Assembly: GCA_963706575.1 (NCBI GenBank)
Contig: CAVPNL010000004.1
Location: 544,001 to 608,000 of the forward strand
DNA: 64,000 bases
Direction: 5' to 3'
Source: an uncultured delta proteobacterium
GTDB taxonomy: Bacteria; Desulfobacterota; Desulfobacteria; Desulfobacterales; JAHEIW01
The notes below the pieces were generated by a model, which saw only the letters and a list, made by a program, of their open reading frames with translations, searched no databases and had not been told where the DNA came from. The first letter of the stretch is position 1, and every line of letters starts with the position of its first letter. Below are positions 38,838-62,685 of the stretch, in pieces. The position numbers were made by a program, and so were the translations under genes.

Positions 38838-39752
38838 TCATTTACTCAATTTATTCTGTTTTATGTCAATTTCTCGCATCAGTTTGAGGACGGCCAGTTC
38901 TTTGGCTTTTGCTTCAACTTCCACGGTAATGTCCAGGTTCAGCCAGAATACCGGAAAGTCCTTGAGATTAATGTAATCATGATGATTTCGGTGATTTCCA
39001 TTCTCCCAGGGCTGTAAAGGACTCGAAATATGAAAAAGTGGCTCCCGGTTCCAAGTTTTCAGTACCTGATGAGTCGCGTCTTTAATGCTCAGACCGTCAG
39101 GCAGGCAGCGATGATGATGTAGGTCGTATACGAGAGGGATTTTCAATTTTTTGCAAATTGGCAGCAAATCTCGGGGCGTATACAGCCTATCATCGTTCTC
39201 CAGGGTAAGGCGACAGCGAATGCTTCGTGGTAGACTCCGAATTCCCCTAACCAGGCGTTGTAGGGCCTTATCCTTGTCTCCGTAAACACCACCGGCGTGA
39301 ATATTGATCACATCGGCGTTGACCCATTTCGCAACTTCCGTCTGATATCTAAGATCGGCAATTGATCTGCGGGTAACCTCTGGATTCGGCGATGATAATA
39401 GAATGAACTGATCGGGGTGGAAGCTCGTACGCATATCGTTTCTTCTGCAGAAAGTCCCGCATTTTTTGAATTTGTTCACGATTTCATTGGATTGGGGCAA
39501 CGCTTCTATGGTGTATCCTAGTTTAGGATGTGTTTTAAGTGGCAAAATCTGGCTGTTGATCCGAAAGGCGTTAATACCATTACGCCGACAAAATTTAAGT
39601 GCCGCGAGAAGAGAATTTGCGTTGTGCAGGCAGATACCGGAAATATAATCCATCCGCTCGTTCGGAGATAGTTTGCTTAAGTACCTTGCTGTCGTGCGGC
39701 GGAACTTTATTGGCTCTTCACGAAAAATACAACACAGACCCCATCGAATCAT
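38838..39752 (-). CDS. uvsE: UV damage repair endonuclease
   Basis: FRINSQILPL.THP, SFHPDQF, IHAGG.YG, LENDD, D.HHH, EAKAKE. Confidence 0.93.
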   Translation of the reverse strand: MIRWGLCCIFREEPIKFRRTTARYLSKLSPNERMDYISGICLHNANSLLAALKFCRRNGINAFRINSQILPLKTHPKLGYTIEALPQSNEIVNKFKKCGTFCRRNDMRTSFHPDQFILLSSPNPEVTRRSIADLRYQTEVAKWVNADVINIHAGGVYGDKDKALQRLVRGIRSLPRSIRCRLTLENDDRLYTPRDLLPICKKLKIPLVYDLHHHRCLPDGLSIKDATHQVLKTWNREPLFHISSPLQPWENGNHRNHHDYINLKDFPVFWLNLDITVEVEAKAKELAVLKLMREIDIKQNKLSK

Positions 39753-40203
39753 GACTGACCTTTCTTCAAAAAGATAGCTGGTCTAATTTTAAGTATCTTT
39801 TGGACCAACATATCGAGCTAACTGACATTTTTTGATTGATACTTAGATTAACTCTTATTTGAGCTCCGTCAACCAATCACGACCCATAGGGAAAGCGAGC
39901 TCATAGTGACCTATTGTTGGTGACGAGTCCCAGTCAAAGGTTTGATTTTTTTGCATTTGCGGAATAAACCAAACAAAAAGGGCAGCAATTGTAGACCGGC
40001 TATTTTGATTTTTTCGCCATCTGACTTGACTATGCAAAGCGAATTCTTAGAATTATTAATATTTTTGGGGTAGAGCTCACCCGTTAAGACGAAACATTGG
40101 AACATCTAAGGCCTGTGAATCCGGCTGAGCAGGATGTTGTTTGTGTTTTTGCGAGCCATATGTTAAGTGAGATAGAAACTAAACGGAAAAGAAAGGACTA
40201 GAC

Positions 40204-40506
40204 ATGCAAGTACAAGACTACTGCAAGGCGATGTTGGCTGAAGTTACAGCATGGAAAGAGAAGCTCGAGGCAATGAAAAAAGTCGCTGACAGCTATGGAA
40301 CAGAACAGAAAGAAAAGGTACTTCCGCTTATCGGGCAGATAGAGCAGGAAGTCGTGAATGCGCAAATGCGTGTGCAGAAGCTCGAAACTGAATGCCCGTC
40401 TGACTGGTCGCCGATGAAAAATGAGCTCGATGATCTCTTCGGTACCATCGGAAGCAGTGTCGACCGTGCCTGGCGCGACCTGTCTCCTGGCGAAGTTGGT
40501 GGTTAG
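40204..40506 (+). CDS. Coiled-coil hypothetical protein
   Basis: AAGGA RBS; DYC....E...WK, ECPSDWSP; hairpin at 40518-40541 follows. Confidence 0.75.
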   Translation: MQVQDYCKAMLAEVTAWKEKLEAMKKVADSYGTEQKEKVLPLIGQIEQEVVNAQMRVQKLETECPSDWSPMKNELDDLFGTIGSSVDRAWRDLSPGEVGG

Positions 40507-40639
40507 CAGAAATCCTGAGGAGAGGCTCCGGCCTCTCCTCTGAGGCTGGAATATTTTTTTATGTTGGCTTACCCTTTACAACCCCCACCTTAAAATTCTG
40601 ATTGTGGTAGTCGATCAGATTGACGAATCGTTATTGTTA

Positions 40640-40903
40640 CTAATCGCTAACATCTCTTTGTATCGCGAGGTAATGGGTAATTTCGTCTTTTTCTTTGCGG
40701 ATCGGAACAATTTTCCATTCCATCATGAATTCGGATCCATCTTTTCTATAATTAATTGCCTGACCGTGAAACAACCTCCCCTCGGAAGTATCCTGATTCA
40801 ACCGTTCGAGTACGGCTTGATCGGTATTCGGCCCTTGTAGTATAGTGATTTGCCGATGATTTCATGGGGCCCATAACCGGTAAGCTCGCAGAACGCTGAA
40901 TTT
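40640..40903 (-). pseudogene. PAS (LOV-like) domain remnant, 5'-truncated and frameshifted
   Basis: NSAFCELTGYGPHEIIGKS / ILQGPNTDQAVLERL...INYRKDGSEFMMEWKIVPI...THYLAIQRDV in two frames. Confidence 0.75.
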
Positions 40904-41106
40904 TTAAATAAAAAGGCTACAAAGCGGACAGCGGCAGTTCCTTTTTTGTGTGCTCAAATACTAACCTTGCATGTCCAGCTCTATAGCCAAAAAAAATATG
41001 GGCATTGCGCTAAACTGCTGGCGCTTCATCGAGGCGCTATTTTTTGCATTGGATTCTCTGAATTTTGTCCACAACGTGAAAAATTTTAAACTTCCGAATG
41101 AATAAC

Positions 41107-42048
41107 TCAGCCGTTTTGCAGCTTTCGCAAGTTGTCGATTGCTATTCTGAAGCTATCAACATCCTTTAAAATCTGCATTTCAGGTCCATCGAAAAAACCA
41201 GCCAGAGGCGATGCGCCCTGCCCACCAATGAAAATAGTAATATCATCGCCCAAATAACGCCTCAATTTCTTTATCTCTAGATTCAATTGATGGCTGTCCT
41301 CATAATAGGTGATGCTAAGCGCCACTGCTCGAGCATCCGCATATGCTACCGCCGCTGCAATTTCTTCTGCCGGCAAACTGGGACCGAAATACAAGGATTG
41401 CCAGTTGGATTCACATGCAATTAATGCAATTGCCAGCGCGCCGAGCTCATGCTGATGTCCTGCCGGGGTCGCAATGACAATCTTCGGTGATGTCTCTGAA
41501 ACTTCAGCTGAACGCAGCAGATTCCACAAAAAGGATCGGATGACCGTGGTTGTCATATGCTCATTGATGACTTTTAGCTCTCCGTGTTCCCATAACTCTC
41601 CGATTTTTTGGCATAGTGGTTCGATGACGGCCTTGATCAACTCCAATTTGCTCAGGTGTACCGCTGCTCGATCAAGGACAGATTCCAAACCTTTGGCATC
41701 AAAATTGAGGACGGTGGACAGCGATCGTTCGTAGAAATAGGTCGCATCCAATGAAGCGGATTCGCGAGCAGTAGAAACCTCGGAAGCAGCTGGCACATCC
41801 AACTTAACGAGCTCCATCAAATCCTCGGGAGATAGACCTGCAATCTGAGAAATGCTGTGGCCGATTTTTACACCTGTTTTCAGCATCTTAAGGCGCTCGA
41901 TATCCTTTCCGCAAAACATCCGCCGGTTGGTTTCTGTTCTTTTGGGCACAACCGCCTGGTAGCGCTTCTCCCAAATACGTATTACATGTGTCGAAAGACC
42001 GGTTTGCTGTGCAACATATCGAATTGGATATACATATTTAATTTTCAT
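41107..42048 (-). CDS. MerR-family regulator with B12-binding domain (CarH/LitR-like photoreceptor)
   Basis: MerR HTH (IR.WEKRY...P.RT..NRR.F); W-x9-EH (WEHGELKVINEH); HQHELG B12 motif; YFGPSLP. Confidence 0.88.
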   Translation of the reverse strand: MKIKYVYPIRYVAQQTGLSTHVIRIWEKRYQAVVPKRTETNRRMFCGKDIERLKMLKTGVKIGHSISQIAGLSPEDLMELVKLDVPAASEVSTARESASLDATYFYERSLSTVLNFDAKGLESVLDRAAVHLSKLELIKAVIEPLCQKIGELWEHGELKVINEHMTTTVIRSFLWNLLRSAEVSETSPKIVIATPAGHQHELGALAIALIACESNWQSLYFGPSLPAEEIAAAVAYADARAVALSITYYEDSHQLNLEIKKLRRYLGDDITIFIGGQGASPLAGFFDGPEMQILKDVDSFRIAIDNLRKLQNG

Positions 42049-42054
42049 GGCTGG

Positions 42055-42109
42055 AATATAACATTTTTCTTTGACATTGTCAAATTTTTGTTTAACTTAT
42101 GTCTAATTT
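42055..42109. promoter_or_regulatory. Divergent sigma-70 promoters with three 11-bp CarH-type operator repeats
   Basis: TTGACATTGTCAA back-to-back -35 boxes; minus TTGACA-N17-TATATT; plus TTGACA-N16-TAACTT; repeats TTGTCAAATTT, TTGTTTAACTT, ATGTCTAATTT. Confidence 0.75.
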
Positions 42110-42176
42110 AAAGTGCATTTATACCTTATTTCATTCAGACCTAAATTCAAAACCCTTAAATTGTTAGGATCTAAAA

Positions 42177-44675
42177 ATGACCAGAGATGCAAACTCAACA
42201 GCGGATAACGAAAAGATCTTTGAAGATCAAATGAATATTCCAGAAGAATTACCCATCTTGACCCTAAAGGAGCAGGTGGCATTTCCAACACTGAATATGA
42301 CCTTAGCGATTCAGGCGGAGGCAACTTCACTGATTGAAAAGGCCATGAAAGGCGATCGAATTATCGGGGCTGTGGGTATCCGGAATCCAGTTGATGATCA
42401 GTCCATGACCAAACGGGTCTTTGAAACCGGCACTGTGATCCGGATTTTGTATGCGACCCGTGCATCCGACAACACCACCCTGTTGGTTGCCAGGGGGTTA
42501 GAACGATTCCGTATCGACCAATGGCTCTCAGAAAAGCCTTACCTGAAGGCTCGCATTACACTGGCTCCTGAAATAACTGAGACGGATATTGAGACGGATG
42601 CATTGTTTCGCAGCCTACGCGGCCTCTCGCAGGAAGTATTTTCCTTGATGCCCAACATACCCAAAGAGGCGGTCGAAGGGCTGGCAAGCATCCGAGACCC
42701 TTTGCATTTAGCCTATATCGCTGCCGCCCATGCCGATATCGATTTTCAAAAACGGCAAAATCTACTGGAAGAAGACCGCCTCAAGGTAAAGCTGCGCGAA
42801 TCAGTGACGATCTTGTCCCGTGAAAAAGAGGTGCTGGCGCTCGGGAAAAAAATCCAAACCGAAGCCCAAGACGAAATGAACAAGTCACAGCGGGAATATT
42901 ATTTGCGGCAGCAACTCGAGGCCATAAAAAAAGAGCTGGGAGAAACCAATGGCGAGAAATCCGAATCCGATGAATACCGACAACGCATCGAAAAATCAGA
43001 CATGAGTGCCGAAGCGCGTAAAGAAGCCCTCAGAGAGCTGGACCGATTCGCCCAAATGACGCCCCAGTCGGCTGAGTACTCCCTGATCAAAACCTATCTG
43101 GACTGGTTACTGGATCTCCCTTGGAATCAACTAAGCGAGGATCAAGCGGATATTAAGGTCGCACGGGAAATCCTAGACGAGGATCACTATGGTCTGCAAG
43201 AGGTCAAGGATCGCCTTATTGAATACTTGGCGGTTCGAAATCTTCTGAAGATCCGAGGACCCCAGAAAAATAAGGAACCCAAGGCGCCATTTTCAACCGC
43301 CATGGGCGTCATATTGTGTTTTGCCGGACCGCCGGGTGTCGGTAAAACCAGCTTGGGACAGAGCATTGCGCGAGCCATGGGGCGTGAATTTACTCGCATG
43401 AGCCTTGGCGGAATACGGGACGAAGCTGAAATTCGAGGTCACCGTCGGACATATATCGGCGCAATGCCGGGACGAATCATTCAGGCGATTAAGCGCGCCG
43501 GCACCCGCAATCCTGTCTTTATGCTGGATGAAGTCGACAAGATCGGTTCGGATTGGCGCGGCGACCCCAGTAGTGCCTTATTGGAGGTATTGGATCCTGC
43601 TCAAAACGCCACCTTTCGCGACCATTACCTGGATGTCGATTTTGACCTGAGCGATGTAATCTTTATTGCCACAGCCAATCAATTGGAAAGTATTCCGTTG
43701 GCATTGAGGGATCGTTTGGAAATCATTCAATTAGAAGGCTATACCGAGTTTGAAAAAACTCAGATCGCCAAACGACACCTAATTCCCCGGCAATTGACCA
43801 GTCATGGCCTGATCGATAGCGAGATGACCTTTATGGACGAGGCGATCCGGAAAATTATTAGTAGCTACACCCGCGAAGCCGGAGTCCGTCAACTAGAAAG
43901 GCTTATCGGTTCCGTCTGCCGTAAATGCGTCGTCAACCTGACGACCCATGGTTGGTCGCATGTCATCGTTACTCCTGAGCAAGTGACAGAATACCTGAAG
44001 AAAGAGAAATTCGAAACCGAACATTCTGAAGTTATTGATATGCCGGGCGTTGCAACCGGTTTGGCGGTGACGGCAAACGGAGGTGACATTCTCTATATTG
44101 AGGCAACGCGAATGCACGGTGACGGGCAACTGCACTTAACCGGTCAACTCGGCGACGTCATGAAAGAAAGTGCTCAAATTGCCTACAGCTATATCCGTGC
44201 ACACGCCGAAAAGTTGGCGATTGAGCCCCAAGCATTTGATAAACGGAAAGTTCATTTGCACGTGCCGGCCGGTGCAATTCCCAAAGATGGTCCTTCGGCG
44301 GGAATCGCCATGACCATGGCCCTGGCGAGCCTGTTCAGCAACCGTCCCGTGCGCAGTGATGTCGGGATGACCGGCGAAATCACGTTACGCGGGCGCATAC
44401 TTCCGGTGGGTGGAATTAAGATGAAGGTTCTAGCGGCCCACCGCGCCGGGCTCACGACCGTGATTTTGCCCAAGCGTAATGCACGCGATCTGCACGACGT
44501 ACCCGAAGAGATTCGTAATGCCATGCAATTTATACCGGTGGATCGGATCGATGAGGCCATCGATATCGGACTGACACGATCAGAAAACAGCGCGGGAGGC
44601 GATTATCGCCCCATTGATCGTAACCTGGATCCACTCAACGAAGAGATTTCAGCGTTAGATTCTTCCGTTAGGTAA
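42177..44675 (+). CDS. lon: ATP-dependent Lon protease
   Basis: GPPGVGKTS, RGHRRTYIGAMPG, PKDGPSAG. Confidence 0.97.
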   Translation: MTRDANSTADNEKIFEDQMNIPEELPILTLKEQVAFPTLNMTLAIQAEATSLIEKAMKGDRIIGAVGIRNPVDDQSMTKRVFETGTVIRILYATRASDNTTLLVARGLERFRIDQWLSEKPYLKARITLAPEITETDIETDALFRSLRGLSQEVFSLMPNIPKEAVEGLASIRDPLHLAYIAAAHADIDFQKRQNLLEEDRLKVKLRESVTILSREKEVLALGKKIQTEAQDEMNKSQREYYLRQQLEAIKKELGETNGEKSESDEYRQRIEKSDMSAEARKEALRELDRFAQMTPQSAEYSLIKTYLDWLLDLPWNQLSEDQADIKVAREILDEDHYGLQEVKDRLIEYLAVRNLLKIRGPQKNKEPKAPFSTAMGVILCFAGPPGVGKTSLGQSIARAMGREFTRMSLGGIRDEAEIRGHRRTYIGAMPGRIIQAIKRAGTRNPVFMLDEVDKIGSDWRGDPSSALLEVLDPAQNATFRDHYLDVDFDLSDVIFIATANQLESIPLALRDRLEIIQLEGYTEFEKTQIAKRHLIPRQLTSHGLIDSEMTFMDEAIRKIISSYTREAGVRQLERLIGSVCRKCVVNLTTHGWSHVIVTPEQVTEYLKKEKFETEHSEVIDMPGVATGLAVTANGGDILYIEATRMHGDGQLHLTGQLGDVMKESAQIAYSYIRAHAEKLAIEPQAFDKRKVHLHVPAGAIPKDGPSAGIAMTMALASLFSNRPVRSDVGMTGEITLRGRILPVGGIKMKVLAAHRAGLTTVILPKRNARDLHDVPEEIRNAMQFIPVDRIDEAIDIGLTRSENSAGGDYRPIDRNLDPLNEEISALDSSVR

Positions 44676-44766
44676 ATCGAAAGCTTTTACACCGAATAAT
44701 GAGCCACTAAAAATCGGCCTGGTAAACGCATTGAGTCTTCGCGCGTAATAAAGAAAGGATTGACCC

Positions 44767-46632
44767 ATGCAGAATCAAAATCGGCTAAGAACATTAATAA
44801 TTATTGGTGGTATTTGGCTTGCCTTGCTGCTGTTTAATTTTCTATCGACGAATGCCGCCGTGAAGACAATACCATACAGCGAATTCTTACAACTCGCCAA
44901 AGAAGGAAAGGTTTCGGAAGTTGCGGTGTCAGACAATGTCATTCAGGGCAAAATGTTTACCGACAACTCCGACCCTGAACAGGGCGAATCCTTCCAAGCG
45001 GTACGGGTCGATGCGGAAATCTCTGATGTACTTGAGCAAAACGGCATTGAATATGCCGGAAAAATCCAGTCGAATTTTCTTTCAAATCTTTTTTCATGGA
45101 TTTTTCCAGTGCTCCTGTTTCTTGGCTTATGGTTTTTGATTATGCGACGATTTCAAAAACAGCAGGGGGGATTCATGACCCTGGGTAAAAATAAGGCCAA
45201 AATCTACATGGAAAACGACGTCGAGGTCAGATTCGAAGACGCCGCGGGCGTTGATGAGGCCAAAGAGGAACTGGTGGAGGTTATCGATTTTATAAAAGAA
45301 CCCGAGCGGTTTACACGCATCGGCGGACAGATTCCGCGCGGCATTTTGCTGGTCGGCCCTCCTGGCACCGGAAAAACCCTGTTGGCAAAGGCAGTGGCTG
45401 GGGAAAGCGGAGTGCCTTTTTTCAGTTTAAGTGGCTCGGAGTTCGTCGAAATGTTTGTCGGTCTGGGCGCAGCACGGGTAAGAGACTTATTTAAACAGGC
45501 CAAAGACAATGCGCCCTGCATCATTTTCATCGATGAACTGGACGCCCTGGGCAAAGCAAGGGGATTCGGCACCGTCGGCGGGCACGATGAACGCGAACAA
45601 ACTTTAAATCAGCTTTTGGTGGAATTAGACGGATTTGATCCGAATATCGGTGTCATCTTGATGGCGGCGACCAACCGCCCGGAGATCCTTGACCCCGCTT
45701 TGCTGAGGCCGGGTCGTTTTGATCGCCAGATACTGGTTGATCGACCCGACAAACAGGGCAGGAAAGAAATTTTAAAAGTTCATCTCAAAAAAATAACGGC
45801 CGCAGATGATCTGGACGTTGATACCCTGGCCGGTATGACTTCAGGCATGGTGGGAGCCGATCTTGCCAACCTGGTCAATGAGGCTGCCCTTTTATCCGTA
45901 AGAAGAAATAAGCCTGCAGTGGGTATGACCGAGTTTGAAGAGGCGGTTGAAAGGGTCGTTGCCGGTCTTGAGAAAAAGAATCGGTTGATCAACCCGAAAG
46001 AAAAAAAGATTGTCGCCTATCATGAACTCGGGCATGCGATTGTCGCCATGACACTGCCCGAAACCGATCCTGTCCAAAAGATCTCTATTATCCCGCGGGG
46101 TATTGCTGCCCTTGGCTATACCATGCAGGTGCCCACTGAAGATCGGTTCTTAATGCGCCGAACCGAGTTGTTGAATCGAATTGCGACGCTATTGGGCGGA
46201 CGGGCTGCTGAGGAAATTGTATTTGATGATATTTCCACCGGTGCACACAATGACCTCTCCAGAGCGACTGATATCGCGCGTAGCATGGTCAAGGAGTACG
46301 GCATGAGCCGTCAATTGGGGCAGGTCTATTTTTCCCGCAATAAGCAAAGCCCATTTCTCAATGCGAATCCGGACAGCGGTGGTGATTACAGTGAAATGAC
46401 GGCTCACTTAATCGACAAAGAGATTCGTCAAATCATCGATGAGCAGTATGAAAGAGTTCTGGGCATATTAAAATCCAGGCGGGATATTTTGGATGAGGCT
46501 GCGAAGAAACTGCTGGAAAGTGAGGTCATAGAGGGCGAGGAGCTCAAAGCACTGGCGGAGACCGTGTCACAAAGCGGAATGCCAGAAGACGATTCCGGTA
46601 TTTCACAAAGCAGTCATGCCCTGGCGGCTTAA
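44767..46632 (+). CDS. ftsH: ATP-dependent zinc metalloprotease FtsH
   Basis: Two TMs, [23 protein letters not shown]. Confidence 0.97.
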
Positions 46633-46708
46633 CCTGTCTGGGAGGGGTTTCAAAACCCCATCTGTTGGATGTAGCAAATAAATTAAAATCTTATCGGAGG
46701 TGAATCCC

Positions 46709-47200
46709 ATGAAAACGTTAATATCTATTATCATATTGATTCTGTTTATCGTCCCCAATGTAATGGCTGCAGGTAGTGCATCGTCCAGCCCTGCCGTTTC
46801 CAAGGATGTTAAAATCTATAACAAAGGGGTTAAGCTGATGCTGGACAAGAAATTTGCTAAAGCTGAAAAGCAATTCCGGAAAGCCCTGGAAATTAACGAG
46901 CGTTTCGCAGAAGCCCATAATAACCTGGCCTATACTTTAAGAAAGCAGGGGGCCGATCATTTCGACGAGGCCCTGATGAATTATAATCGGGCGATCGAGC
47001 TAAATCCGAATTTACCAGAACCGTATATGTATCGCGGGGTGCTGTATGTACAGATGGGAAACAAATCGTTCGCGCTGAAAGATCATGAAAAGCTGGTCAC
47101 GATGGGCCCACCCCTATCAGATGAACTGGAATACGTTGTGGTCAATGGACGCGAAAAAGAGCCTGAACAATTTTTCGGTGTATCGCGTAAGATGAAATAG
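46709..47200 (+). CDS. Exported TPR protein
   Basis: Signal peptide; AEAHNNLA, YNRAIELNP, YMYRG; GGAGG RBS. Confidence 0.85.
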   Translation: MKTLISIIILILFIVPNVMAAGSASSSPAVSKDVKIYNKGVKLMLDKKFAKAEKQFRKALEINERFAEAHNNLAYTLRKQGADHFDEALMNYNRAIELNPNLPEPYMYRGVLYVQMGNKSFALKDHEKLVTMGPPLSDELEYVVVNGREKEPEQFFGVSRKMK

Positions 47201-47404: not shown

Positions 47405-47767
47405 ATGAATAAAAAAAATCTCCAATACTTTAAGCGTAAGCTCACTGCACAGCTTCAAGATTTATTGACCGGCTCTGATTGTAATTTTGGCGACCTTAAG
47501 GCACCCGACGAGCATCTGGCGGATCCGGTCGACCGGGCAACTTATACCACCGAGCGTAATTTTTCCCATCATCTGTGCAGCAGGAACAACAGTGTCATCA
47601 AAGAAATCGAGCAGGCACTGCAGGATATTGAAAATGGTGATTACGGCATTTGTGACCGCTGCAACGAGGATATTCCCATCAAGCGGTTAAAAGTCCGGCC
47701 GATGGCGCGCTATTGTATCAGCTGTAAATCGCAGCTTGAAAATGAACAGATGCTCGCCGACAGTTGA
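47405..47767 (+). CDS. dksA: DksA/TraR C4 zinc-finger protein
   Basis: DPVDRA coiled-coil tip; YGICDRC...I..KRL..RP.A.YCISC. Confidence 0.85.
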   Translation: MNKKNLQYFKRKLTAQLQDLLTGSDCNFGDLKAPDEHLADPVDRATYTTERNFSHHLCSRNNSVIKEIEQALQDIENGDYGICDRCNEDIPIKRLKVRPMARYCISCKSQLENEQMLADS

Positions 47768-47792
47768 GCCTCAAATATTCAGGAGAACACCA

Positions 47793-48356
47793 ATGACAAA
47801 CTCAATAACAAGACCTATGCCAATTTTTGCGGCACGGTTTAAAATAATACCTTTTTTAGTGCTGTTTTTTGCGATAACGGGCTGTGCGACCGCCCCCCCG
47901 ATTGAAACGGTTGATTCGGTCAATATAGAGCGTTTCATGGGAGACTGGTATGTGATCGCCAATATTCCTCACGCTATTGAAAAAGATGCTTATAACGCCC
48001 TTGAATCTTATCGTCTGGCTGAGGATGGAACCATTGAAACAACCTTTACTTTCAACAAGGGCGGTTTCGATGGCCCACTCAAGACCTATAAACCCCGGGG
48101 GTTTATTCAGGATAAGGAATCAAATGCTGTTTGGGGAATGCAGTTTTTTTGGCCGATTAAGGCAGAGTACCGCATCATCTATCTTAACGAGGATTATACC
48201 CAAACGGTCATCGGTCGCACCAAAAGAGACTATGTCTGGGTCATGGCCAGAAAACCTTATATTCCGCACGATGACTACAACCGGATCTTGGATTTTATCA
48301 AATCGCAGGGCTACGACCTGAGTAAGCTGCAAAAAGTTCCACAGCAGGTTAGATAG
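47793..48356 (+). CDS. Bacterial lipocalin (Blc-like lipoprotein)
   Basis: Lipobox ITG-C; RFMGDWYVIA; YVWVMARKP. Confidence 0.9.
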   Translation: MTNSITRPMPIFAARFKIIPFLVLFFAITGCATAPPIETVDSVNIERFMGDWYVIANIPHAIEKDAYNALESYRLAEDGTIETTFTFNKGGFDGPLKTYKPRGFIQDKESNAVWGMQFFWPIKAEYRIIYLNEDYTQTVIGRTKRDYVWVMARKPYIPHDDYNRILDFIKSQGYDLSKLQKVPQQVR

Positions 48357-48504: not shown

Positions 48505-49083
48505 ATGAGCCTAAAACTTTACCGGTCCCTATATACCATCGTTGCGTTGATCGCGATGATTTTAATCCAGCCCCAGAGCAAAGCGGCAGAGGTTAATGGT
48601 ATCAACTTTGATGATCAGTATGCGGCCGGAGACACGGTGTTGAAAATAAGAGGTGCCGGTCTATTGCGCGTCATGGCATTTGCAAAGGTATATGTCAGCG
48701 CCCTCTATCTGCCGGAGGATTGTGCTTCTAAACTGGTGCTTTCAGATGTGCCCAAGCGATTGGAAGTTGAATATATGAGATCCATCGCGGGCAATGATTT
48801 CGGCCGTGTCACCAACAAAAAAATATCTGAGAATGTAGATTCGCAGACCTTTGAGCGGCTGCGACCCCGCATTCTATATCACAATTCACTGTATCAGGAT
48901 GTTCAACCCGGCGACCGGTATTCTTTGACATACATTCCCGGTAAGGGGACGGAACTGGCGTTAAACGGTGAACCCCAGGGTGTTATCGAAGGCGCTGATT
49001 TTGCGGCCGCCGTGTTTTCCATCTGGCTGGGGCCTAAACCCATCAGCGAATCCCTAAAAAAAGATCTCCTGGACTTATCGTGA
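48505..49083 (+). CDS. Chalcone isomerase-like protein
   Basis: GAGLLR....KVYVSALYL, F..AVFSIWLG.KP....LK..LL. Confidence 0.85.
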   Translation: MSLKLYRSLYTIVALIAMILIQPQSKAAEVNGINFDDQYAAGDTVLKIRGAGLLRVMAFAKVYVSALYLPEDCASKLVLSDVPKRLEVEYMRSIAGNDFGRVTNKKISENVDSQTFERLRPRILYHNSLYQDVQPGDRYSLTYIPGKGTELALNGEPQGVIEGADFAAAVFSIWLGPKPISESLKKDLLDLS

Positions 49084-50483: not shown

Positions 50484-50512
50484 AAACGGATAGGGTGTCT
50501 GGAGTAATTAGA

Positions 50513-51301: not shown

Positions 51302-51774
51302 TTTGAATTTGATCTGCGGTGAGCAGACAAGGTGCGAATTACCGGCTTTGAGGCGCTGTAGAGCATCAGGATCAGCAATGGGCTGATGACCAGCCATGTA
51401 AGAATTGCATACAGGGTCAAATCCCACAGGTTGGCCATGCTGCCCCAAAAATCATTTTGAAGTAAGCCGATCAAATCTGTATCGATCAATGGCAACCCCT
51501 GCTGTTTAAACAACCAGTTGCCGATGCCGTAAAATGGCGCCAGCATAACGAGCTGCAACGGGTAAACCATATAGTTCACGACCTGAATGGCCGGCAGATT
51601 CAACCGCAGCGCCAGGGCGGCAACGGTGCACAGCATGGTAGTTGTGCCCAAGATGGGAAATATGCCCAAAACAGTTCCAAAAGCAATGCACAGCGCTATT
51701 TTTTTCAGGCTCATACCCTCTTTGAGCATCGATTTTACCATACTCAATATCTTTGTCTTAATTGCTCTGATCAT
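51298..51774 (-). CDS. DUF2062 family membrane protein
   Basis: IAL..AFG..LGIFP.LG.TT, LRLNLPA.Q.VN. Confidence 0.8.
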   Translation of the reverse strand: MIRAIKTKILSMVKSMLKEGMSLKKIALCIAFGTVLGIFPILGTTTMLCTVAALALRLNLPAIQVVNYMVYPLQLVMLAPFYGIGNWLFKQQGLPLIDTDLIGLLQNDFWGSMANLWDLTLYAILTWLVISPLLILMLYSASKPVIRTLSAHRRSNSN

Positions 51775-51795
51775 GAGATGCTTTCATCAAATTTG

Positions 51796-52500
51796 TTAAG
51801 GGATTCTGTCCAAGACCGACTTCATCCGGATCATACGGGTCTCCTGAGCAGCACCCATCCACACAAAAAATGCGATGAATAAAAGTATCGGATTGTAAAA
51901 TAATCCAATAATCCCAAAAAGCAAGGCGATCGCCTGACCCAGATTGGCAGAAATCTGTGTGGCCCTGACATATGCCAGGCGCGTGGCAAGCAAAGCGCGG
52001 AAGACCCGACCGCCGTCCATCGGAAATGCGGGTATCATATTAAACAGGATCAAAAAAATGTTGACACCCATAATGCGCTCAACAAATGCTGCGGTGGTCA
52101 TCGTTAATTGATTATCCGGTGTAAGAGTATTGGTGATCCATAGGTAAACCGCAAGCAAGGCAACAATCACGACATTTACCGCCGGGCCAGCTAATGCCAC
52201 CCACAGTTCTTGAATGGGCTGGTTTGGCATTTTTTCCAGGCGAGCCACACCGCCGATCGGCAACAGGATAATATCTCGGGTTTTAATCCCATATTTTTTT
52301 GCTGCTAAGGCATGGCCTAATTCATGCAGAACAACGCATGAAAATATTGCCAGGATGAACACGACGCCTGAAAAGGCCGCACCAATGGATCCGTTTAATT
52401 TCAACTGAATCAACGCCACCCATGTTAACAATATAAAGAACGTAAAATGGATGAAAATATCAATTCCTGCCAATTTGGCTATTTTCAATGACCATCGCAT
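51796..52500 (-). CDS. Site-2 protease (M50 family), no CBS pair
   Basis: HELGH, AGPAVN, FNMIPAFPMDGGR. Confidence 0.9.
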   Translation of the reverse strand: MRWSLKIAKLAGIDIFIHFTFFILLTWVALIQLKLNGSIGAAFSGVVFILAIFSCVVLHELGHALAAKKYGIKTRDIILLPIGGVARLEKMPNQPIQELWVALAGPAVNVVIVALLAVYLWITNTLTPDNQLTMTTAAFVERIMGVNIFLILFNMIPAFPMDGGRVFRALLATRLAYVRATQISANLGQAIALLFGIIGLFYNPILLFIAFFVWMGAAQETRMIRMKSVLDRIP

Positions 52501-52532: not shown

Positions 52533-53534
52533 TTAACCGCCATAACCGCCTTCACTGTATGCGGCATAATCGGGCAATGCGTGCTTAAATGACGCTTTCA
52601 TTTTTGCGATGATGTTTTTTTGGATCTGACGGACCCGTTCTCTTGAGATCCCATATCGCTTGCCGATTTCCGCCAGTGTTTCAGGATCTTCTGCGAAAAT
52701 ACGCTGGTTAAAAATATCGAGTTCTCGTTGATTCATTTCCTTTTTGAATTCAGCAATTCGTTGATGAAGAATCGTTTCAAACTCTTTTTTTGATATCTTG
52801 TCTTCGAGTGGTTCGGCGGAAGTTTTCAAAAATTCTATTCGCGCTGTATCCGTGTTGTCTGTTAAAGGGGCATCCAGTGAAACATCCCAGCCATTGATCC
52901 GTTGGTCCATTTCAACCACTTCTTTTTTGGACACCCCCAGTCTTTCGGAGATAAGCTCCGCTTTGGGTTCAAAACCTTCATCCCGTAATTTTTGCTTTTC
53001 TTTTTTGAGACGGAAAAAGAGCTTTCGCTGCGCCTGGGTGGTTCCGATTTTTACCAGACGGAAGTTATCCATTAAGTGCTTGATAATGTAAGCTTTGATC
53101 CAAAATGAAGCGTAGTATGAAAACTTCACCTTTTTCTCTGGATTGAATTTTTCAACCGCTTTCATCAGCCCGATGTTGCCCTCCTGAATGAGATCCAGCA
53201 GATTCTGCATCCACATTCTGCGGTAATCCAAGGCAATTTTTACGACGAGCCGGAGGTTTGACGTCACCACCTTGTGGGCCGCTCGGCTGTCGCCCTGTTC
53301 CTTCAGTCTTTTAAAAAGGATTAGTTCTTCATTTCTGCTCAGCAACTTATACTGGCTGATGCTCGTCAGATAGCTCTGAAGCGTATTGGGAACAACCGGT
53401 CTTTCGGCCGGCGGCGCCGGCCTGGTCGAGAAGCTAGGTGCCTCTTTACGCCGATTTCGTTTCCCGTTTCCGCTTACATTACGGGTCTCCGGATTTTGCT
53501 TACCTCTTACAACCTTTTTTTTCTGACTCAGCAT
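52533..53534 (-). CDS. RpoH/sigma-32-like sigma factor
   Basis: SNLRLVVKIA, DLIQEGNIGLMKAV, RpoH box TTQAQRKLFFRLK, ISRERVRQI; no region 1.1. Confidence 0.88.
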   Translation of the reverse strand: MLSQKKKVVRGKQNPETRNVSGNGKRNRRKEAPSFSTRPAPPAERPVVPNTLQSYLTSISQYKLLSRNEELILFKRLKEQGDSRAAHKVVTSNLRLVVKIALDYRRMWMQNLLDLIQEGNIGLMKAVEKFNPEKKVKFSYYASFWIKAYIIKHLMDNFRLVKIGTTQAQRKLFFRLKKEKQKLRDEGFEPKAELISERLGVSKKEVVEMDQRINGWDVSLDAPLTDNTDTARIEFLKTSAEPLEDKISKKEFETILHQRIAEFKKEMNQRELDIFNQRIFAEDPETLAEIGKRYGISRERVRQIQKNIIAKMKASFKHALPDYAAYSEGGYGG

Positions 53535-54002
53535 TCTGTTCCTCCTCTGCCCATTCCCGCCTTAAGGTCTGCCGCATAAACCAATACCCCGTTAAGAGCC
53601 TTTGCATTTGATATGCTTTTCAGGGTATTGAAATCAGGCTAAATCGTTTATGCAGTCAGATTTTAAGCCTAATGGCTGTCGTTTTATAAGACATTGAATC
53701 TGTTATTGATAAAACTAAGTATTAAACAAAATATAAAATTTTTATTTTTGTCTAAGTTTTGTCTAAAAAAATAAACATTTTCATTGGCTTGTCAACCATC
53801 GCAACCCCTTTATTCTACTTTTACTTTGTTATTCTCTAGATTCAGAACTGAAGTGCTGATGGATCGTATAAATTGCATAAAACCGGCCTATTTTAAGCAA
53901 GATTCCGCAAACCTTGACTCAGGATTAGTAAGTGTTAGCTTAAAATCAGTAAACCAGCGGGTAGGAGCGGTGGCAACTTCAGACAAATCGAGCGAATTGG
54001 GA

Positions 54003-54881
54003 ATGGAAATGAAGAAATTTCAAAAACGCGCCAGAATTATTATCATCGCTGGCATCAATCTGCTTTTACTTTATGCGCTGGCCTGCACCTATCTCTGGGC
54101 CGAGCAGAGCCATTTTATTTTCATGCCGCGGCGAGAAATCAAAAAGACACCGGCAATTTACCAGTTGCCCTACGAAGACGTCTACGTCTCAATTGAACTC
54201 CCGAATGGTCAAAAAGAACGCATCCACGGGTGGTGGATTCCGGCACAAATACCATCTGACAAAACCCTGCTTTACCTGCACGGCAGTGCGCTCAACATCG
54301 GCGCCAATGTCGATCATGCGCGCCGCTTCCATAACCTGGGTTTTTCCGTTTTTCTGGTCTCCTATCGCGGATACGGGCTGAGTGACGGCGAATTTCCGTC
54401 AGAAGCGCAGATGTATGCTGATGCAGAAGCAGCCTGGAATTACCTGGTCAAACAAAAGCACATCAACCCCGATCACATTTTCATTTACGGACATTCCATC
54501 GGCGGTGCTATTGCCATCGACCTTGCCACGCGCCACCCGGAAGCGGCCGGGTTGATTGTCGAGGCATCATTTACGTCCATCTTCGATATGGCGCGGTTAA
54601 AATACAGATATCGTCTCTTACCCATGGGTCTCATTGTTGAGCAAAAGTTTGATTCCCAGAAGAAAGTCGGGCAGTTGAAAATTCCGGCGCTGTTTATCCA
54701 TGGTACAAAAGATGCTCTGGTTCCGCCTGAGATGAGCCGCCGCCTGTATGAAAAAACGTCATCTCCTAAACGATTAACATTTATCAAGGGCGGCGGTCAT
54801 AACAACAGTGCCGCTGTTGGTGGTGAGGATTATTTGCGCAGCATCAGACAATTCGAGGAATTTATCAGTCAAAAATCATAG
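54003..54881 (+). CDS. Alpha/beta hydrolase
   Basis: YRGYG.S.G, GHSIGG, IHGTKD, GGHNN; start uncertain. Confidence 0.88.
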   Translation: MEMKKFQKRARIIIIAGINLLLLYALACTYLWAEQSHFIFMPRREIKKTPAIYQLPYEDVYVSIELPNGQKERIHGWWIPAQIPSDKTLLYLHGSALNIGANVDHARRFHNLGFSVFLVSYRGYGLSDGEFPSEAQMYADAEAAWNYLVKQKHINPDHIFIYGHSIGGAIAIDLATRHPEAAGLIVEASFTSIFDMARLKYRYRLLPMGLIVEQKFDSQKKVGQLKIPALFIHGTKDALVPPEMSRRLYEKTSSPKRLTFIKGGGHNNSAAVGGEDYLRSIRQFEEFISQKS

Positions 54882-54903: not shown

Positions 54904-55311
54904 TCATATCAGCCACTTGGCGATGTAAAAGCTTAGCGTCGCAACCAGCGTACATAGAACCACGCCCCAGAGAATATCGGCCACCACAATATTGAGCGGC
55001 CAATCTTTGAGCAGGGCTAAATTCGTCAGATCATAGGTTGCATATGTAAAAAACCCAAAAAGCGCACCCCACACCGCCGCGTGACGCACTGAATCTTTAG
55101 CGACGCCCGGCAGGACGGCGAAGATCAGAATCCCGGCAATATACATCAGATAAAAAATGATGGCGGCGGTCCAGTTGACATTCGGGCTGAGGATATATTT
55201 CAAGTTTTTCTGATAAAATCCCTTGGCTACAACTCCCAGCCAGATCAGGTCAATAATGAAAAAAACGGGTACGGTAAGTGCATACAGCTTAAGATAAAAT
55301 GAAATGTTCAT
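54904..55311 (-). CDS. DUF2177 family membrane protein
   Basis: IDLIWLG, YATYDLTNLA.LKDWP....D..WG. Confidence 0.88.
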   Translation of the reverse strand: MNISFYLKLYALTVPVFFIIDLIWLGVVAKGFYQKNLKYILSPNVNWTAAIIFYLMYIAGILIFAVLPGVAKDSVRHAAVWGALFGFFTYATYDLTNLALLKDWPLNIVVADILWGVVLCTLVATLSFYIAKWLI

Positions 55312-55350
55312 TGGAACCTCGACTAAAGTACAGTTATCCCAAACAGGTGA

Positions 55351-55788
55351 TTATTTTGCCGAATTTTCAAATGTCGCGCGTAACCGCTCCACCCGCCGGC
55401 GGTTGGCACCAAAGTCATAATAACCGGTGCGGGATGCAGACCTCACATGAATGATGCGATCTTCTGAAGAAAAGTAAAATTCGACGTCATCGACAAAGTT
55501 AAAAACTAATGAACGAAATTCAGCATGAATGTAATCCGTTTCAACGCGTATCAGCCGGGCACGTTTCGAGCCCTCCAGGAGGCCGATGAGTTTTTGCCTG
55601 GCATCGGCACGATTGCCGGTATAATGCAGCGGTTCGATAAAACGCGCTGGATCTTTGCTCTGGGAAGAAACACAGTTGGGCGAATCCAGACAGGGCGATA
55701 ACCTGTTGGTTCCGGCTGCCGCATGGGTTGCGCTCAACAGGATACAAACATACAGGGACAGGCGCTTTGTAAATAAGTCGTTCATCAT
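55351..55788 (-). CDS. DUF1499 family protein
   Basis: L.PC..SPNCVSSQ, FVDDVEF, RSASR.G..D.G.NR.R. Confidence 0.88.
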   Translation of the reverse strand: MMNDLFTKRLSLYVCILLSATHAAAGTNRLSPCLDSPNCVSSQSKDPARFIEPLHYTGNRADARQKLIGLLEGSKRARLIRVETDYIHAEFRSLVFNFVDDVEFYFSSEDRIIHVRSASRTGYYDFGANRRRVERLRATFENSAK

Positions 55789-56222
55789 ACCGGTATAATC
55801 ACAGTGGGGATTGATGTGCATTTAATCACACGGTCGGCAACACTGCCGAAATCAAAATGGGCCTCGCTGCCCTGGCTGGCCATAATGACCATGTCGATAT
55901 CCTCATTCTGGATCAGTTTGAGGATCTCTTTAACGGGATCACCGACACTGATGTGGCGAACATAAAGCGGGCAGGCGTTTAAAAAATTTTCGCAGATTTC
56001 GTCCAGCCGTTTTTCGGCGGTTTCCTGCTCCCATTGCCGCATTTTTTCGTAATCGCCGGGGTCACTGTAGCCATAAGATGCGCCGAATTCAGGATAATCT
56101 TTCAGCACGTATAGAATATGAATCTCAGCAGCATATTTTTGCGATAAGGATGTCACCAGCGGCAGCGCTGTTGCGGCGTTTTCCGATAAATCCGTTGGCC
56201 ACAAAATTTTTTTAATTTCCAT
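55785..56222 (-). CDS. Universal stress protein
   Basis: KKILWPTDLS, GDP..EI, FGSVADRVI. Confidence 0.92.
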   Translation of the reverse strand: MEIKKILWPTDLSENAATALPLVTSLSQKYAAEIHILYVLKDYPEFGASYGYSDPGDYEKMRQWEQETAEKRLDEICENFLNACPLYVRHISVGDPVKEILKLIQNEDIDMVIMASQGSEAHFDFGSVADRVIKCTSIPTVIIPV

Positions 56223-56660
56223 TGCTATGCCTTCCTCCGGGCTTATTAAGTTCATGTTGCGTCATTTACCCGACGAATGGTTAAAGGTTTATTAACCCAA
56301 TTAATTTAACACCATAAGCACTTCTTTTCTGTTCGCCAAATACTATTTTAAAATTCTGGTTTTTTGCATAGAAATGCCTCACAGTGGATGCAATAAGAGA
56401 ACACGGTCACCCTAAAATAGGGTCTGGAACTGATCGACGATGATGAGTGTTTTATCAAAGGTTCGCAATGCTTGTTTAGAATGTATGGTGGTTCAGTAGC
56501 TTGACCCAGCCGAGGAAAGGAGGAAACTCAGCGTAAACTGAACCAACACTGCGTAAACTGAACCACCACTGTATGATGGAGAAATAAGCAATCAATATGG
56601 AGATTATTAAAGAGACAAAAAAACAGACAGAAGTTACAGTATTTGGTCTTTGCTGCAAAT

Positions 56661-60351: not shown

Positions 60352-61317
60352 TTAAAGGGTCTCGGCGACCGCTCGATTTTGTTCTCGCAAACCCTCCGGC
60401 AAACCCCGCAGATCCCGGACGATGCCCAGCAAACTCAGGAGCTTGAGCAAATAATAGGTAATATCAATTTCCCACCAGTAAAATCCCTGGCGCGCGGAAA
60501 TCGCATAATGATGGTGATTGTTATGCCACCCCTCGCCCAAGGTAATCAGCGCCAAAATCGCATTGTTGCGACTGGTATCCGCAGTATCATAACGACGGCT
60601 GCCGATCATGTGATCAAAAGAGTTGATGGTCACCGTTCCGTGAAAAAGCACCACCGAAGAAATAAAAAACCCCCAGATCAGCAGCTGGGGACCGTTGGTC
60701 CCCAAACCGGGTGCATATTTTTGCAGTAAATTGCCCCCCAAAAATAATATAACGGCCAATAGAACCGGAATGACAGTGTCGAAGCGATTGATCCAGCGCA
60801 GCTCGGGATATTTGGCCCAATCTTTCACATATTGCATTTTGGTCGGAAAATTCGCGGGCGACGTTAGCCACCCGATGTGGCTCCAGATAAATCCGTGCCG
60901 GCTGGGTGAATGGATATCTTTTTCAGTGTCCGCGAAGCGGTGGTGATGGCGATGATGCGCTGCCCACCACAACGGGCCGCGCTGAACCGAAGAATTGCCG
61001 ATGACAGCAAAGATGAATTGCCAGAACCGATTGGCTTTAAACGCTTTGTGGGAGAAATAACGATGGTAAAATCCGGTAATGCCAAACATGCGGATAAAAT
61101 AAAGCCCGGCTGCCGTCAAAACGGCAAACCAGCTCCACCCCACCCAGATGACCCCCAAACACATCAGGTGCAATATCACAAATGGAATGATCCGAAACCA
61201 ATCGACTTTCTTGACAGGTGCGTTGGATATTTGATCAGCATACGCATCCGCGTCAAACCAGCGCCAGAGCGATAGCAGAAAATTGGATTTCTTTGAAGTG
61301 TTCCCCACTTTTTTCAT
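60352..61317 (-). CDS. Acyl-CoA/delta-9 fatty acid desaturase
   Basis: His boxes HRYFSH, HRHHH, GEGWHNNHH. Confidence 0.92.
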   Translation of the reverse strand: MKKVGNTSKKSNFLLSLWRWFDADAYADQISNAPVKKVDWFRIIPFVILHLMCLGVIWVGWSWFAVLTAAGLYFIRMFGITGFYHRYFSHKAFKANRFWQFIFAVIGNSSVQRGPLWWAAHHRHHHRFADTEKDIHSPSRHGFIWSHIGWLTSPANFPTKMQYVKDWAKYPELRWINRFDTVIPVLLAVILFLGGNLLQKYAPGLGTNGPQLLIWGFFISSVVLFHGTVTINSFDHMIGSRRYDTADTSRNNAILALITLGEGWHNNHHHYAISARQGFYWWEIDITYYLLKLLSLLGIVRDLRGLPEGLREQNRAVAETL

Positions 61318-61431
61318 TGAGCAAGCTTATCTGAAAATAGTGATTTCAGTTTACTCCAAATATCCCCGATGATCGCATTCACAACTTTTCTGTAATGGAA
61401 TTTATTAAAAAATACAACAATCATATCATTG

Positions 61432-62148
61432 TTACCGAAAGGTTCTCAGAGCGCTCATGCCTCCATCGATGTGAATAATCTGACCGGTCAGCCAGGTACT
61501 GGCATCCGAGAGTAAATAGATGGCTAAACCGGCAATTTCCTGTGGTGTTCCGATGCGTTTTAAGGGATGACGATCAGCCGATGCCTGACGTTTTTCTTCG
61601 CTGGACAATAAATTTTGGGCCAGGGGCGTATCGGTCAAAGACGGGGCGATGGCGTTAAATCGGATACGGGGCGCAAATTCAGCGGCCAATGATCGCGTAA
61701 GTCCCTCCACAGCCGCTTTGGCGCCGGCGACGGAGGCATGAAATGGCATGCCCGTTTTTACAGCCACCGTGCTGAATAAGACAACCGACGCTCCTGTTTT
61801 TGACTTTCTTAGACGGGTTAAGCAGGCTTGAATGGTCCTCACCGCGCCCAGAAAATTAACCTGAAGATCTTTTAAGAAATCATCGATCGTCAGACGCTGA
61901 AAGGGTTTGAGCTGGATGGTCCCCGGACAATAAACGATTCCATTTAATACTTCTGGTAGTCCTTCGAGATTAAGCGGGTCCGCCGTCACATCCAGCGGCA
62001 AATGATGCACGCCAGCAAGTTCGGCCAGTTGATCATTGGTTCGTGAACCCACGTAGACTTCGTTACCTTTTTCATGAAGCGCTTTGACAATTTCCAGACC
62101 AATGCCGGAACTGCCACCCACAATAAGAAAATGTTTCTCGTCCATCAT
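61432..62148 (-). CDS. SDR family oxidoreductase
   Basis: GGSSGIG Rossmann motif; PLKRIG.P; catalytic Tyr position reads V (VAGAK). Confidence 0.88.
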   Translation of the reverse strand: MMDEKHFLIVGGSSGIGLEIVKALHEKGNEVYVGSRTNDQLAELAGVHHLPLDVTADPLNLEGLPEVLNGIVYCPGTIQLKPFQRLTIDDFLKDLQVNFLGAVRTIQACLTRLRKSKTGASVVLFSTVAVKTGMPFHASVAGAKAAVEGLTRSLAAEFAPRIRFNAIAPSLTDTPLAQNLLSSEEKRQASADRHPLKRIGTPQEIAGLAIYLLSDASTWLTGQIIHIDGGMSALRTFR

Positions 62149-62238
62149 TCACCTTCCTCAAATTGTCGTTTTCTTTATTTGCAGTAAATTGGCATCTTTT
62201 ATGATGCTAAATTCATTTTCTGTACAGAAAATTCAAAA

Positions 62239-62685
62239 TCATTGATTTTTCCGCTGCATTTCTCTTTGGCGCATCGGCATCGAGTCGATCAATCCAAAAA
62301 CGTCGCTTAAATCAACTCGATCCTCACTTTTGAGTTTGATGCCGCCGTCTTTGCCGACCAGAATGAGGTTGAATGTATTGCTGGGTATGGCAAAGTGAGT
62401 GCGTATCGAATCGGCTTCCTTTCGATCCAAAGGACTATTATTCATTCGGGCAGGACCTTGCGCCGGCACCTCAAAAACAATCAAATCCCGGTCGTCTACT
62501 TCAGCTTTTTGAGCCATAATTTGGCCTTGTAGATTCTTAAAGAAAGGATCGTTGGCATCTTCGGCAAAAAGAAAAAGCAGCCGGTTTTTCCACTGGAACT
62601 GCGTTAAATCCATAGACAATGCCTCCTCGGGAGCCCAAACAGTTAAACCAATCAAAATCAAAAAAACAACGACAAATCTTCTCAT
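62239..62685 (-). CDS. DUF4174 family secreted protein
   Basis: WKNRLL, LVGKDGG.K, IDSMPMRQREM. Confidence 0.88.
   Translation of the reverse strand: MRRFVVVFLILIGLTVWAPEEALSMDLTQFQWKNRLLFLFAEDANDPFFKNLQGQIMAQKAEVDDRDLIVFEVPAQGPARMNNSPLDRKEADSIRTHFAIPSNTFNLILVGKDGGIKLKSEDRVDLSDVFGLIDSMPMRQREMQRKNQ

Follow-up and report, generated by a model that had tools for sequence, protein, structure and literature searches.

A CarH-like B12 regulator likely to control Lon and FtsH proteases and an RpoH paralog in sulfate-reducing Desulfobacterales

A 64,000-nucleotide stretch of contig CAVPNL010000004.1 from assembly GCA_963706575.1 (the window, C4:544001-608000 of the 5.67-Mb host genome G000, which is 91.8% complete with 6.4% contamination) holds an island of about 24 kb in which the gene of a CarH/LitR-like regulator faces away from genes for the proteases Lon and FtsH. 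The observations gathered here indicate that the regulator likely governs a real and conserved CarH-like regulon in sulfate reducers, and that the two proteases and a paralog of the sigma factor RpoH are likely direct targets. In the literature searched, which left out most subscription papers and supplements, no description was found of CarH with Lon or FtsH, or of CarH in the Desulfobacterales, an order treated in the accessible text of PMC8443593 as specialists of dark, anoxic sediments. The protease and RpoH targets of CarH in sulfate reducers were found in no paper searched and are new to that extent.

The regulator combines an N-terminal MerR helix-turn-helix, a four-helix cap and a B12-binding Rossmann domain (PF13411, PF02607, PF02310). 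Its best matches in the Protein Data Bank (PDB), by sequence and by fold, are CarH/LitR of Thermus thermophilus (TtCarH), and the top Foldseek matches of its predicted model, with a predicted local distance difference test (pLDDT) score of 86, are all TtCarH. The protein carries the motifs G150xxW153-x9-E163H164 and G197-H-Q-H200; Wx9EH (W153-x9-E163-H164) is kept in 39/40 clade members and the cobalt-binding histidine in 35/40, with Cys in four and Tyr in one. All four light-response motifs of SignatureFinder (GxxW, EH, GxxH, and GxxxP), as given in the available part of PMC11796333, are present. CarH is defined in PMC8156234, as far as its accessible text goes, by two motifs, Wx9EH and the classic B12 motif ExHx2Gx41SxV/Tx22-27GG. 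Of the latter, H200, G203, S245-x-T247 and G275-G276 are spaced correctly and the first residue is His198; because the classic motif is incomplete, the regulator is classed as a CarH-like variant. Domains, fold, Wx9EH and the cobalt histidine bear out the CarH/LitR-like assignment made by the first-pass annotation, and the protein likely binds adenosyl-B12, for the supply of which G000 has cobS and, adjoining the island, cobA. Four CarH homologs (L106-L109) have Cys at the position of the cobalt histidine, and all four are without operator.

Between carH and lon lie 128 bp that contain three tandem repeats of the 11-bp consensus nAnnTnnACAn (PMC8156234, accessible text). This three-repeat site (42077-42109) is the only 15/15 consensus match in the genome, and it covers the -35 of carH and the lon-facing -10. 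The carH promoter-like site is the best-scoring sigma-70-like site within positions 38000-57000 of the window, its -35 position is kept in relatives, and the carH mRNA is predicted to be leaderless; the lon-facing site is missing from the listing of the consensus promoter scan. Both -35 elements form an inverted repeat, a layout shared by 12/12 lon-linked loci and by one of eight others, in which carH faces cydAB. Most relatives have the operator some 60 nt upstream of the carH start. A matrix built from the carH sites of 14 relatives gives the carH-lon operator 44.6 bits, as against a maximum of 25.0 bits for 20 column-permuted matrices, and of the held-out carH loci 15/20 have a two-repeat site of at least 16 bits, a kind of site present in 1.2% of 1796 random windows. 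Other two-repeat sites of G000, at 16-23 bits, fall within the range of the permuted matrices and were not accepted; they stand before what appear, from the N-termini, to be sat, a thioredoxin-like gene and an oxidase region. Around carH in relatives, a tetratricopeptide repeat (TPR) gene of 170-197 aa is a frequent neighbour (L012-L014, L016-L018, L093, L094, L096, L102, L104, L106, L108, L109) and has its own operator in several loci, and an aprB-like gene has repeats nearby in L096 and L104.

The divergent arrangement recurs across the order. In carH loci picked by best score, from related genomes that are not independent, lon and/or ftsH diverge from carH in 11/20 loci of close relatives (one lon being a remnant) and in 10/20 loci of the wider order, and the carH-operator-lon/ftsH unit is found in seven families, L022 counted. 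Fifteen carH-linked Lon proteins form a group of their own, separate from the three other Lons of G000, which also has two further ftsH genes. CarH was detected in 41/401 genomes of the order and, in a phylum-wide search (E 1e-30), in 4/401 genomes; at three carH loci outside the order no lon appears within the 3.8 kb shown, and at one of these carH adjoins uvsE. The proposal that a protease operon is the divergent neighbour of the photoreceptor thus stands as regards lon-ftsH, and the operator strengthens the case for direct control. Elsewhere, carH is divergent from the cytochrome bd genes cydAB in G056 (L019:9482-12965) and lies beside a catalase-peroxidase gene in L097, L100 and L102.

The best operator-like site of the genome after that of carH-lon lies just downstream of TTGACA-16-TATTTT, before the rpoH paralog of the island; the housekeeping rpoH copy is on contig C3. 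Such a site precedes 11/11 island-type rpoH genes (17.8-31.4 bits) and 0/29 other rpoH genes (maximum 11.9 bits), the background being 11/4070 open reading frames (ORFs). L062 was left out of this count, its upstream stretch being 213 nt only; the stretches of L068, L071 and L078 are short and that of L079 is mis-cut. In 7/11 island-type loci the site is placed about 300 nt further upstream, mostly before a small ORF. In a quick tree the 12 island RpoH proteins cluster together, with a rhodopsin-linked group as their sister and the 25 other copies elsewhere; in each of the 12 island-type loci the operator-bearing paralog has island genes around it. A distinct RpoH-type promoter, TTGA-gap-TG(A/C)TTA, was sought upstream of the lipid, universal stress protein (USP), PAS and RudS genes and was rejected: the pattern has 114 matches in the genome, occurs also at hsp20 and hflK, and is indistinguishable from an extended sigma-70 promoter. 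The literature searched gave nothing of use on a deltaproteobacterial RpoH promoter consensus.

Taken as a whole, a light-released CarH-like repressor acting on carH, lon-ftsH and rpoH, combined with an RpoH cascade, is fairly probable on the basis of sequence and gene arrangement. In the dark, the regulator bound to adenosyl-B12 would repress carH, lon-ftsH and rpoH through the two operator sites; light, probably with O2, would cleave the cofactor and make the repressor release DNA. Direct light control of these three targets by CarH appears highly probable, and the transcription units derepressed would be carH, lon-ftsH and rpoH-M50-DUF2062 and, if co-transcribed with lon-ftsH, also the TPR, dksA, lipocalin, chalcone-isomerase-like, MFS and DUF1295 genes. 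Soluble and membrane proteins damaged by photo-oxidation would be cleared by Lon and FtsH, which would probably also degrade photolysed CarH and the RpoH paralog and so reset the circuit. In E. coli, FtsH degrades sigma-32. The RpoH paralog would drive genes without operator, i.e., those for furan-fatty-acid synthesis, UvsE and photolyases; its step to the lipid operon, suggested by gene position and by analogy with Azospirillum RpoH2, has about an even chance of being right. To a sulfate reducer of surface sediments, light would signal singlet oxygen and the O2 released by photosynthesis. Switching of TtCarH needs O2 besides light to be completed, according to the accessible text of PMC10442372, which suits a sensor of conditions that generate singlet oxygen.

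A link with light is also seen in the rhodopsins of the order, which occur in 8/401 genomes from five families, all eight being among the 41 genomes with CarH. Eight of the nine rhodopsin proteins carry the NDQ sodium-pump motif and are KR2-like (L050:14693-15493 in G015, L086 in G007, L087 in G008, L089 in G027, and L115, L116, L117 and L118 are the loci), several of the genes adjoin crtI/crtB/crtY/blh genes, and dsrD was confirmed in all four rhodopsin-bearing genomes checked. G000 has no rhodopsin. CarH-type repeats lie upstream of 4/9 rhodopsin genes (15.0-24.1 bits), most clearly in L118, where three stand in tandem. They are candidates for Na+ pumps that sulfate reducers would drive by light, and the literature searched gave no description of such pumps. 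A tentative extension of the circuit, possible but less likely than not, is that light directly turns on a dedicated Lon/FtsH pair and the RpoH paralog, driving an O2-dependent defence by furan lipids and DNA repair and a proteolytic reset of the irreversibly photolysed sensor, and that the same switch runs a sodium pump in several relatives, which would make these photoheterotrophic sulfate reducers to which light is an energy source besides a warning of O2. A second rhodopsin of G374 (L114:1465-2202) has its best match in PDB 4hyj, which we take to be the Exiguobacterium proton pump, and has weak operator-like repeats upstream. Upstream of the rhodopsin in L050:6260-14363, L051 and L052 lie genes for two histidine kinase-like proteins and two response regulators, for a B12-binding protein that stands alone and carries Wx9EH, and for hemerythrin, encapsulin and an RpoH paralog that is the sister of the island RpoH, L051 adding a heme oxygenase; the set is a candidate second light circuit, and no CarH operator was found in this region.

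Several observations weigh against the light-released repressor and its cascade. In the protein, Glu175 of the classic ExH motif is found in 0/40 clade members (Gln in 20, His in 19, Asp in one), and the equivalent of TtCarH His132 is Glu154 here and His in 1/40; His132 is also variable among confirmed photoreceptors. The H132A variant of TtCarH remains mostly tetrameric (PMC10442372, accessible text), the score with the NCBIfam CarH equivalog NF052513 is 113 bits for a cut-off of 400, and the repeats persist in L009, a lon-linked homolog whose cobalt ligand is replaced by Tyr. At the DNA level, the rpoH site taken alone is within chance genome-wide, 2/20 permuted matrices reaching at least 25 bits, and the argument for it rests on conservation for that reason; no RpoH-specific promoter was definable in G000, and no operator precedes uvsE, the lipid operon or the photolyase genes. 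As for gene order, the carH-lon-ftsH genes of G007 have unrelated neighbours, and the synteny that had been expected holds for the carH-lon/ftsH unit across the order but not for the whole 24 kb, an order that none of the other fetched loci shows. Judging from these loci, conservation extends to a set of blocks and an operator logic, not to the 24-kb order as such.

The clade-wide changes at Glu175 (to Gln or His) and His132 would fit a regulator that mainly senses O2, redox state or B12 supply, and in which oxidation or loss of adenosylcobalamin through an altered cobalt pocket would free DNA in the dark and induce the proteases and an oxygen defence. Neighbours such as cydAB (L019) and catalase-peroxidase (L097, L100, L102) would suit such a sensor, as would the role of cobalt redox in driving CarH switching (PMC10442372, accessible text). 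However, Wx9EH, which caps the adenosyl group cleaved by light, is kept in 39/40 clade members, the same repeats stand before rhodopsin genes, which work only in light, and CarH co-occurs with rhodopsins (8/8) and with photolyases, and a sensor of this kind is considered improbable.

The lipid genes of the island raise a different question. The ufaD-, ufaO- and ufaM-like genes, in which a DUF1365 gene lies beside genes for an FAD oxidoreductase and a CFA-family methyltransferase, fit the O2-dependent furan fatty acid pathway, the gene families and numbering of which follow the accessible text of PMC7380195; they are predicted to be furan fatty acid genes, the methyltransferase scoring below all NCBIfam cfa cut-offs. 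DUF1365 is present in 133/401 genomes, versus 41/401 for CarH. The island might accordingly be a mosaic in which CarH controls only carH, lon-ftsH and rpoH, whereas the genes for furan lipids, UvsE and photolyases belong to a defence of their own against oxygen or reactive oxygen species (ROS), under other control, that merely adjoins them in this lineage. Such a mosaic is consistent with the missing operators at the furan-lipid, uvsE and photolyase genes, with carH-lon-ftsH lying apart from the lipid genes in G007, and with G022, G023 and G025, which have lipid genes and photolyase, but no CarH match, and in which a LuxR-family gene flanks the desaturase gene. The desaturase gene is likewise flanked by a LuxR-family gene where G000 has the lipid, uvsE, MFS and RudS genes a second time, with some frameshifts (C14:141600-161600 and the start of C13; L027); this copy is arranged like the loci of genus g2 and may be a separate acquisition, contamination or a sequencing error. 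On the other hand, DUF1365 is found in 35/41 genomes with CarH as against 98/360 others (a frequency that itself counts against the light circuit), the operator-bearing rpoH lies among island genes in 12/12 island-type loci, and LitR-type regulators of Pseudomonas putida control ufaM and photolyase genes (PMC9758184, accessible text); on balance a mosaic of this sort is unlikely. Four of the 36 genomes from other families in a first sample gave a full CarH match, and each of the four has DUF1365 and photolyase too. The earlier idea of a photoreceptor heading the whole 24 kb is not borne out, no operator preceding the furan-lipid operon and 98/133 DUF1365 genomes being without a CarH match. Islands of relatives also contain a protein of about 815 aa with a photolyase-like N-terminal domain and an FAD oxidoreductase (L032:2-2257, L036:2954-5401, L056:1515-3953).

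Compared with the class I CarH/LitR of T. thermophilus (PDB 5c8d/5c8e/3whp), Myxococcus xanthus and Bacillus megaterium, the regulator is alike in domain order, fold, Wx9EH, cobalt histidine and operator layout, in which three 11-bp repeats stand in tandem over the -35. It differs in the replacement of Glu175 by Gln or His and the missing His132 across the clade, in its sulfate-reducing host and in its likely targets, protease genes and an RpoH paralog in place of the usual carotenoid genes, which were not found in G000. Unlike Rhodobacter, G000 gives no match to the ChrR anti-sigma factor (TIGR02451, with control matches in Caulobacter), and a B12 photoreceptor would here replace RpoE/ChrR upstream of the RpoH paralog. 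The singlet-oxygen response of Rhodobacter includes an RpoHII step. Its RpoE/ChrR regulon with UfaM/UfaD/UfaO resembles the island in furan fatty acid gene families (PMC7380195, accessible text), and a second RpoH, Azospirillum RpoH2, acts in photo-oxidative defence (cited in the available part of PMC12627116). In Streptomyces LitR-LitS, as described in the accessible text of PMC11519972, a B12 repressor over bidirectional promoters releases a sigma factor that drives effectors; the likeness extends to the B12 repressor, the bidirectional promoters and the sigma factor as target, but where LitS is an extracytoplasmic function (ECF) factor encoded divergently from litR, the sigma factor here is RpoH-type, and its gene, under a separate operator, is 10 kb distant, carH being divergent from lon-ftsH instead. 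The class II LitR clusters of Pseudomonas (PplR/PmlR), in which a LitR-family gene stands beside ufaM, FAD oxidoreductase, SDR and photolyase genes (PMC9758184, accessible text), share these four genes with the island and its surroundings, as well as a short LOV/PAS gene nearby. In Pseudomonas a LOV protein switches class II LitR, which has no B12 Rossmann domain; the regulator here has the full B12 domain, and the PAS partner (whose gene is broken in G000) has no LOV cysteine. P. putida regulation of ufaM and photolyase genes by LitR-type proteins is on record in the same text, and RudS is known from operons of this LitR/ufaM type (PMC11417400, accessible text). The architecture had been put forward as undescribed, which holds, within the literature searched, for the protease and RpoH targets, but not for LitR beside ufa genes (PMC9758184) or LitR leading to a sigma factor (PMC11519972).

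If the light-released circuit is right, about one in ten of the sampled genomes of the order would read light, probably so as to be ready for the O2 and singlet oxygen that arise by day in surface sediments, and light reading by Desulfobacterales would bear on diel sulfur cycling. To work on CarH it would add new direct targets (proteases and RpoH) and a candidate route for clearing the irreversible photoproduct, together with a natural clade without Glu175 and His132 in which the need for O2 and for bis-His ligation in switching could be tested; the short, exact operator would permit study in vitro without culture of the host.

G000 contains dsrAB and dsrD, its nearest named records are Desulfobacterales, and ARAGORN predicts tRNA-Sec as well as tRNA-Pyl, in keeping with the selenocysteine-using Desulfobacterota host foreseen by the first-pass annotation. 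The strict anaerobiosis also supposed there is not supported, in view of terminal oxidase genes: with cytochrome bd and with two genes of the heme-copper oxidase family, G000 is read as an O2-tolerant sulfate reducer, and its genes point to a member of the Desulfobacterales with oxygen-scavenging oxidases. Terminal oxidases of such types are reported for the order in the accessible text of PMC8443593. Ten stand-alone B12-cap (corrinoid-protein-like) genes are present as well. That the island is an assembly artefact or DNA of an aerobic contaminant in the bin, as the contamination of 6.4%, some frameshifted genes and the fact that no read contig spans the whole island might suggest, is highly improbable: the left flank is 51-92% identical to loci of the same genus, the island blocks have the same order in many relatives, and 14 DNA runs from seven studies hold at least 0.76 of the carH-lon-ftsH words, two of them covering all 30 bins of 37500-57400. 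A chimeric or aerobe-derived contig, which had been named as refuting the whole proposal, is thus largely answered by synteny with relatives. Where a run among the 14 has a specific label, it is a marine, sediment or seawater metagenome. In two RNA runs of a single study, contigs with near-identical pieces span rpoH-M50 and the stretch from lon through the lipocalin gene; they show presence only, and expression cannot be ranked from contigs. On the lipid operon and its extension these runs cover 2/30 and 0/30 bins, and on uvsE none, which was not used as evidence either way. Genes at 14796-35070 of the window match the neighbourhood where relatives hold a second carH and a TPR gene (L014-L018); no second carH copy was shown in G000.

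The features of the island are collected in Table 1. All genes listed by the first-pass annotation were recovered between 38838 and 62745 with Pfam/NCBIfam support, and TPR, DUF2062, alpha/beta hydrolase, DUF1499, DUF4174, sll1863-like and broken PAS genes were found in addition.

Table 1. Genes and sites of the island and its right-hand extension (positions in the window, unless preceded by C4)
Feature	Position	Strand	Support or remark
uvsE, UV-damage endonuclease	38838..39752	-	TIGR00629 192 bits, above cut-off
sll1863-family stress protein, 100 aa	40204..40506	+	NF052504 35.6 bits, cut-off 35
Short LOV-like PAS gene remnant	40643..40938	-	5' part lost, frameshifted
CarH/LitR-like regulator	41107..42048	-	MerR HTH, four-helix cap, B12 Rossmann domain
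carH promoter-like site TTGACA-17-TATATT	42055..42083	-	ends 6 nt before ATG
lon-facing promoter-like site TTGACA-16-TAACTT	42071..42098	+	read from sequence
CarH-type operator, three tandem 11-bp direct repeats	42077..42109	-	each matches nAnnTnnACAn
Lon protease	42177..44675	+	TIGR00763 912 bits, cut-off 608
FtsH protease	44767..46632	+	TIGR01241 809 bits, cut-off 600; Walker A and HExxH motifs
TPR protein	46700..47200	+	hydrophobic N-terminus
DksA paralog	47405..47767	+	four-Cys zinc finger, DxxDxA tip
Blc-like lipocalin	47736..48356	+	true start probably further downstream
Chalcone-isomerase-like (Chalcone_3), MFS_2 transporter, DUF1295 membrane protein	48505..51301	+	
DUF2062 and M50 site-2 peptidase	51298..52500	-	
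RpoH-like sigma factor, paralog	52533..53534	-	NF005143 264 bits, cut-off 241
Promoter-like site TTGACA-16-TATTTT with two operator repeats (53748-53769)	53748..53795	-	upstream of rpoH paralog
Alpha/beta hydrolase	53784..54881	+	divergent from rpoH
USP, DUF1499, DUF2177	54904..56255	-	gene order kept in relatives
ufaM/cfa-like CMAS methyltransferase	56834-58120	-	
ufaO-like DUF1365	58126-58899	-	
ufaD-like FAD oxidoreductase	59058-60302	-	
DUF4174, short-chain dehydrogenase/reductase (SDR), fatty-acid desaturase	60352..62745	-	5' part of lipid operon
340-aa protein	62840..63862	+	no Pfam family; kept beside lipid operon
DPRP photolyase-related gene	C4:616606-618153		outside the window
CobA/CobO B12 adenosyltransferase	C4:618785-619342		outside the window

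Beyond the window, C4:608000-619342 (L029) holds genes for an FAD oxidoreductase, a split ADP-ribosylglycohydrolase-like protein, a SOUL haem-binding protein, an SDR, the DPRP photolyase-related protein and CobA. The claim that no carotenoid or photolyase gene is present holds within the window but not for photolyases beyond it, where the DPRP gene lies just outside and a class II photolyase, found with PF00875, is on contig C18; the 0 matches of PF03441 in G000 had misleadingly suggested that photolyase was absent. Orthologues of crtB and crtI were not found in G000, at the completeness given above, and an SQS_PSY match on contig C15 is unconvincing as crtB, with no crtI beside it.

Lon and FtsH pass their family cut-offs and have their catalytic motifs, and the DxxDxA sequence of the DksA paralog is what we take to be the DksA tip motif. 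The block of chalcone-isomerase-like, MFS_2 and DUF1295 genes is kept in relatives. The M50 peptidase has 234 aa in G000 and appears C-terminally shortened, because the copies of 9/10 relatives have 358-365 aa. Intact PAS copies of relatives measure 137-169 aa and are without the LOV cysteine, and an sll1863-like gene also lies near carH in L001, L003, L012, L091, L093, L097, L100 and L104.

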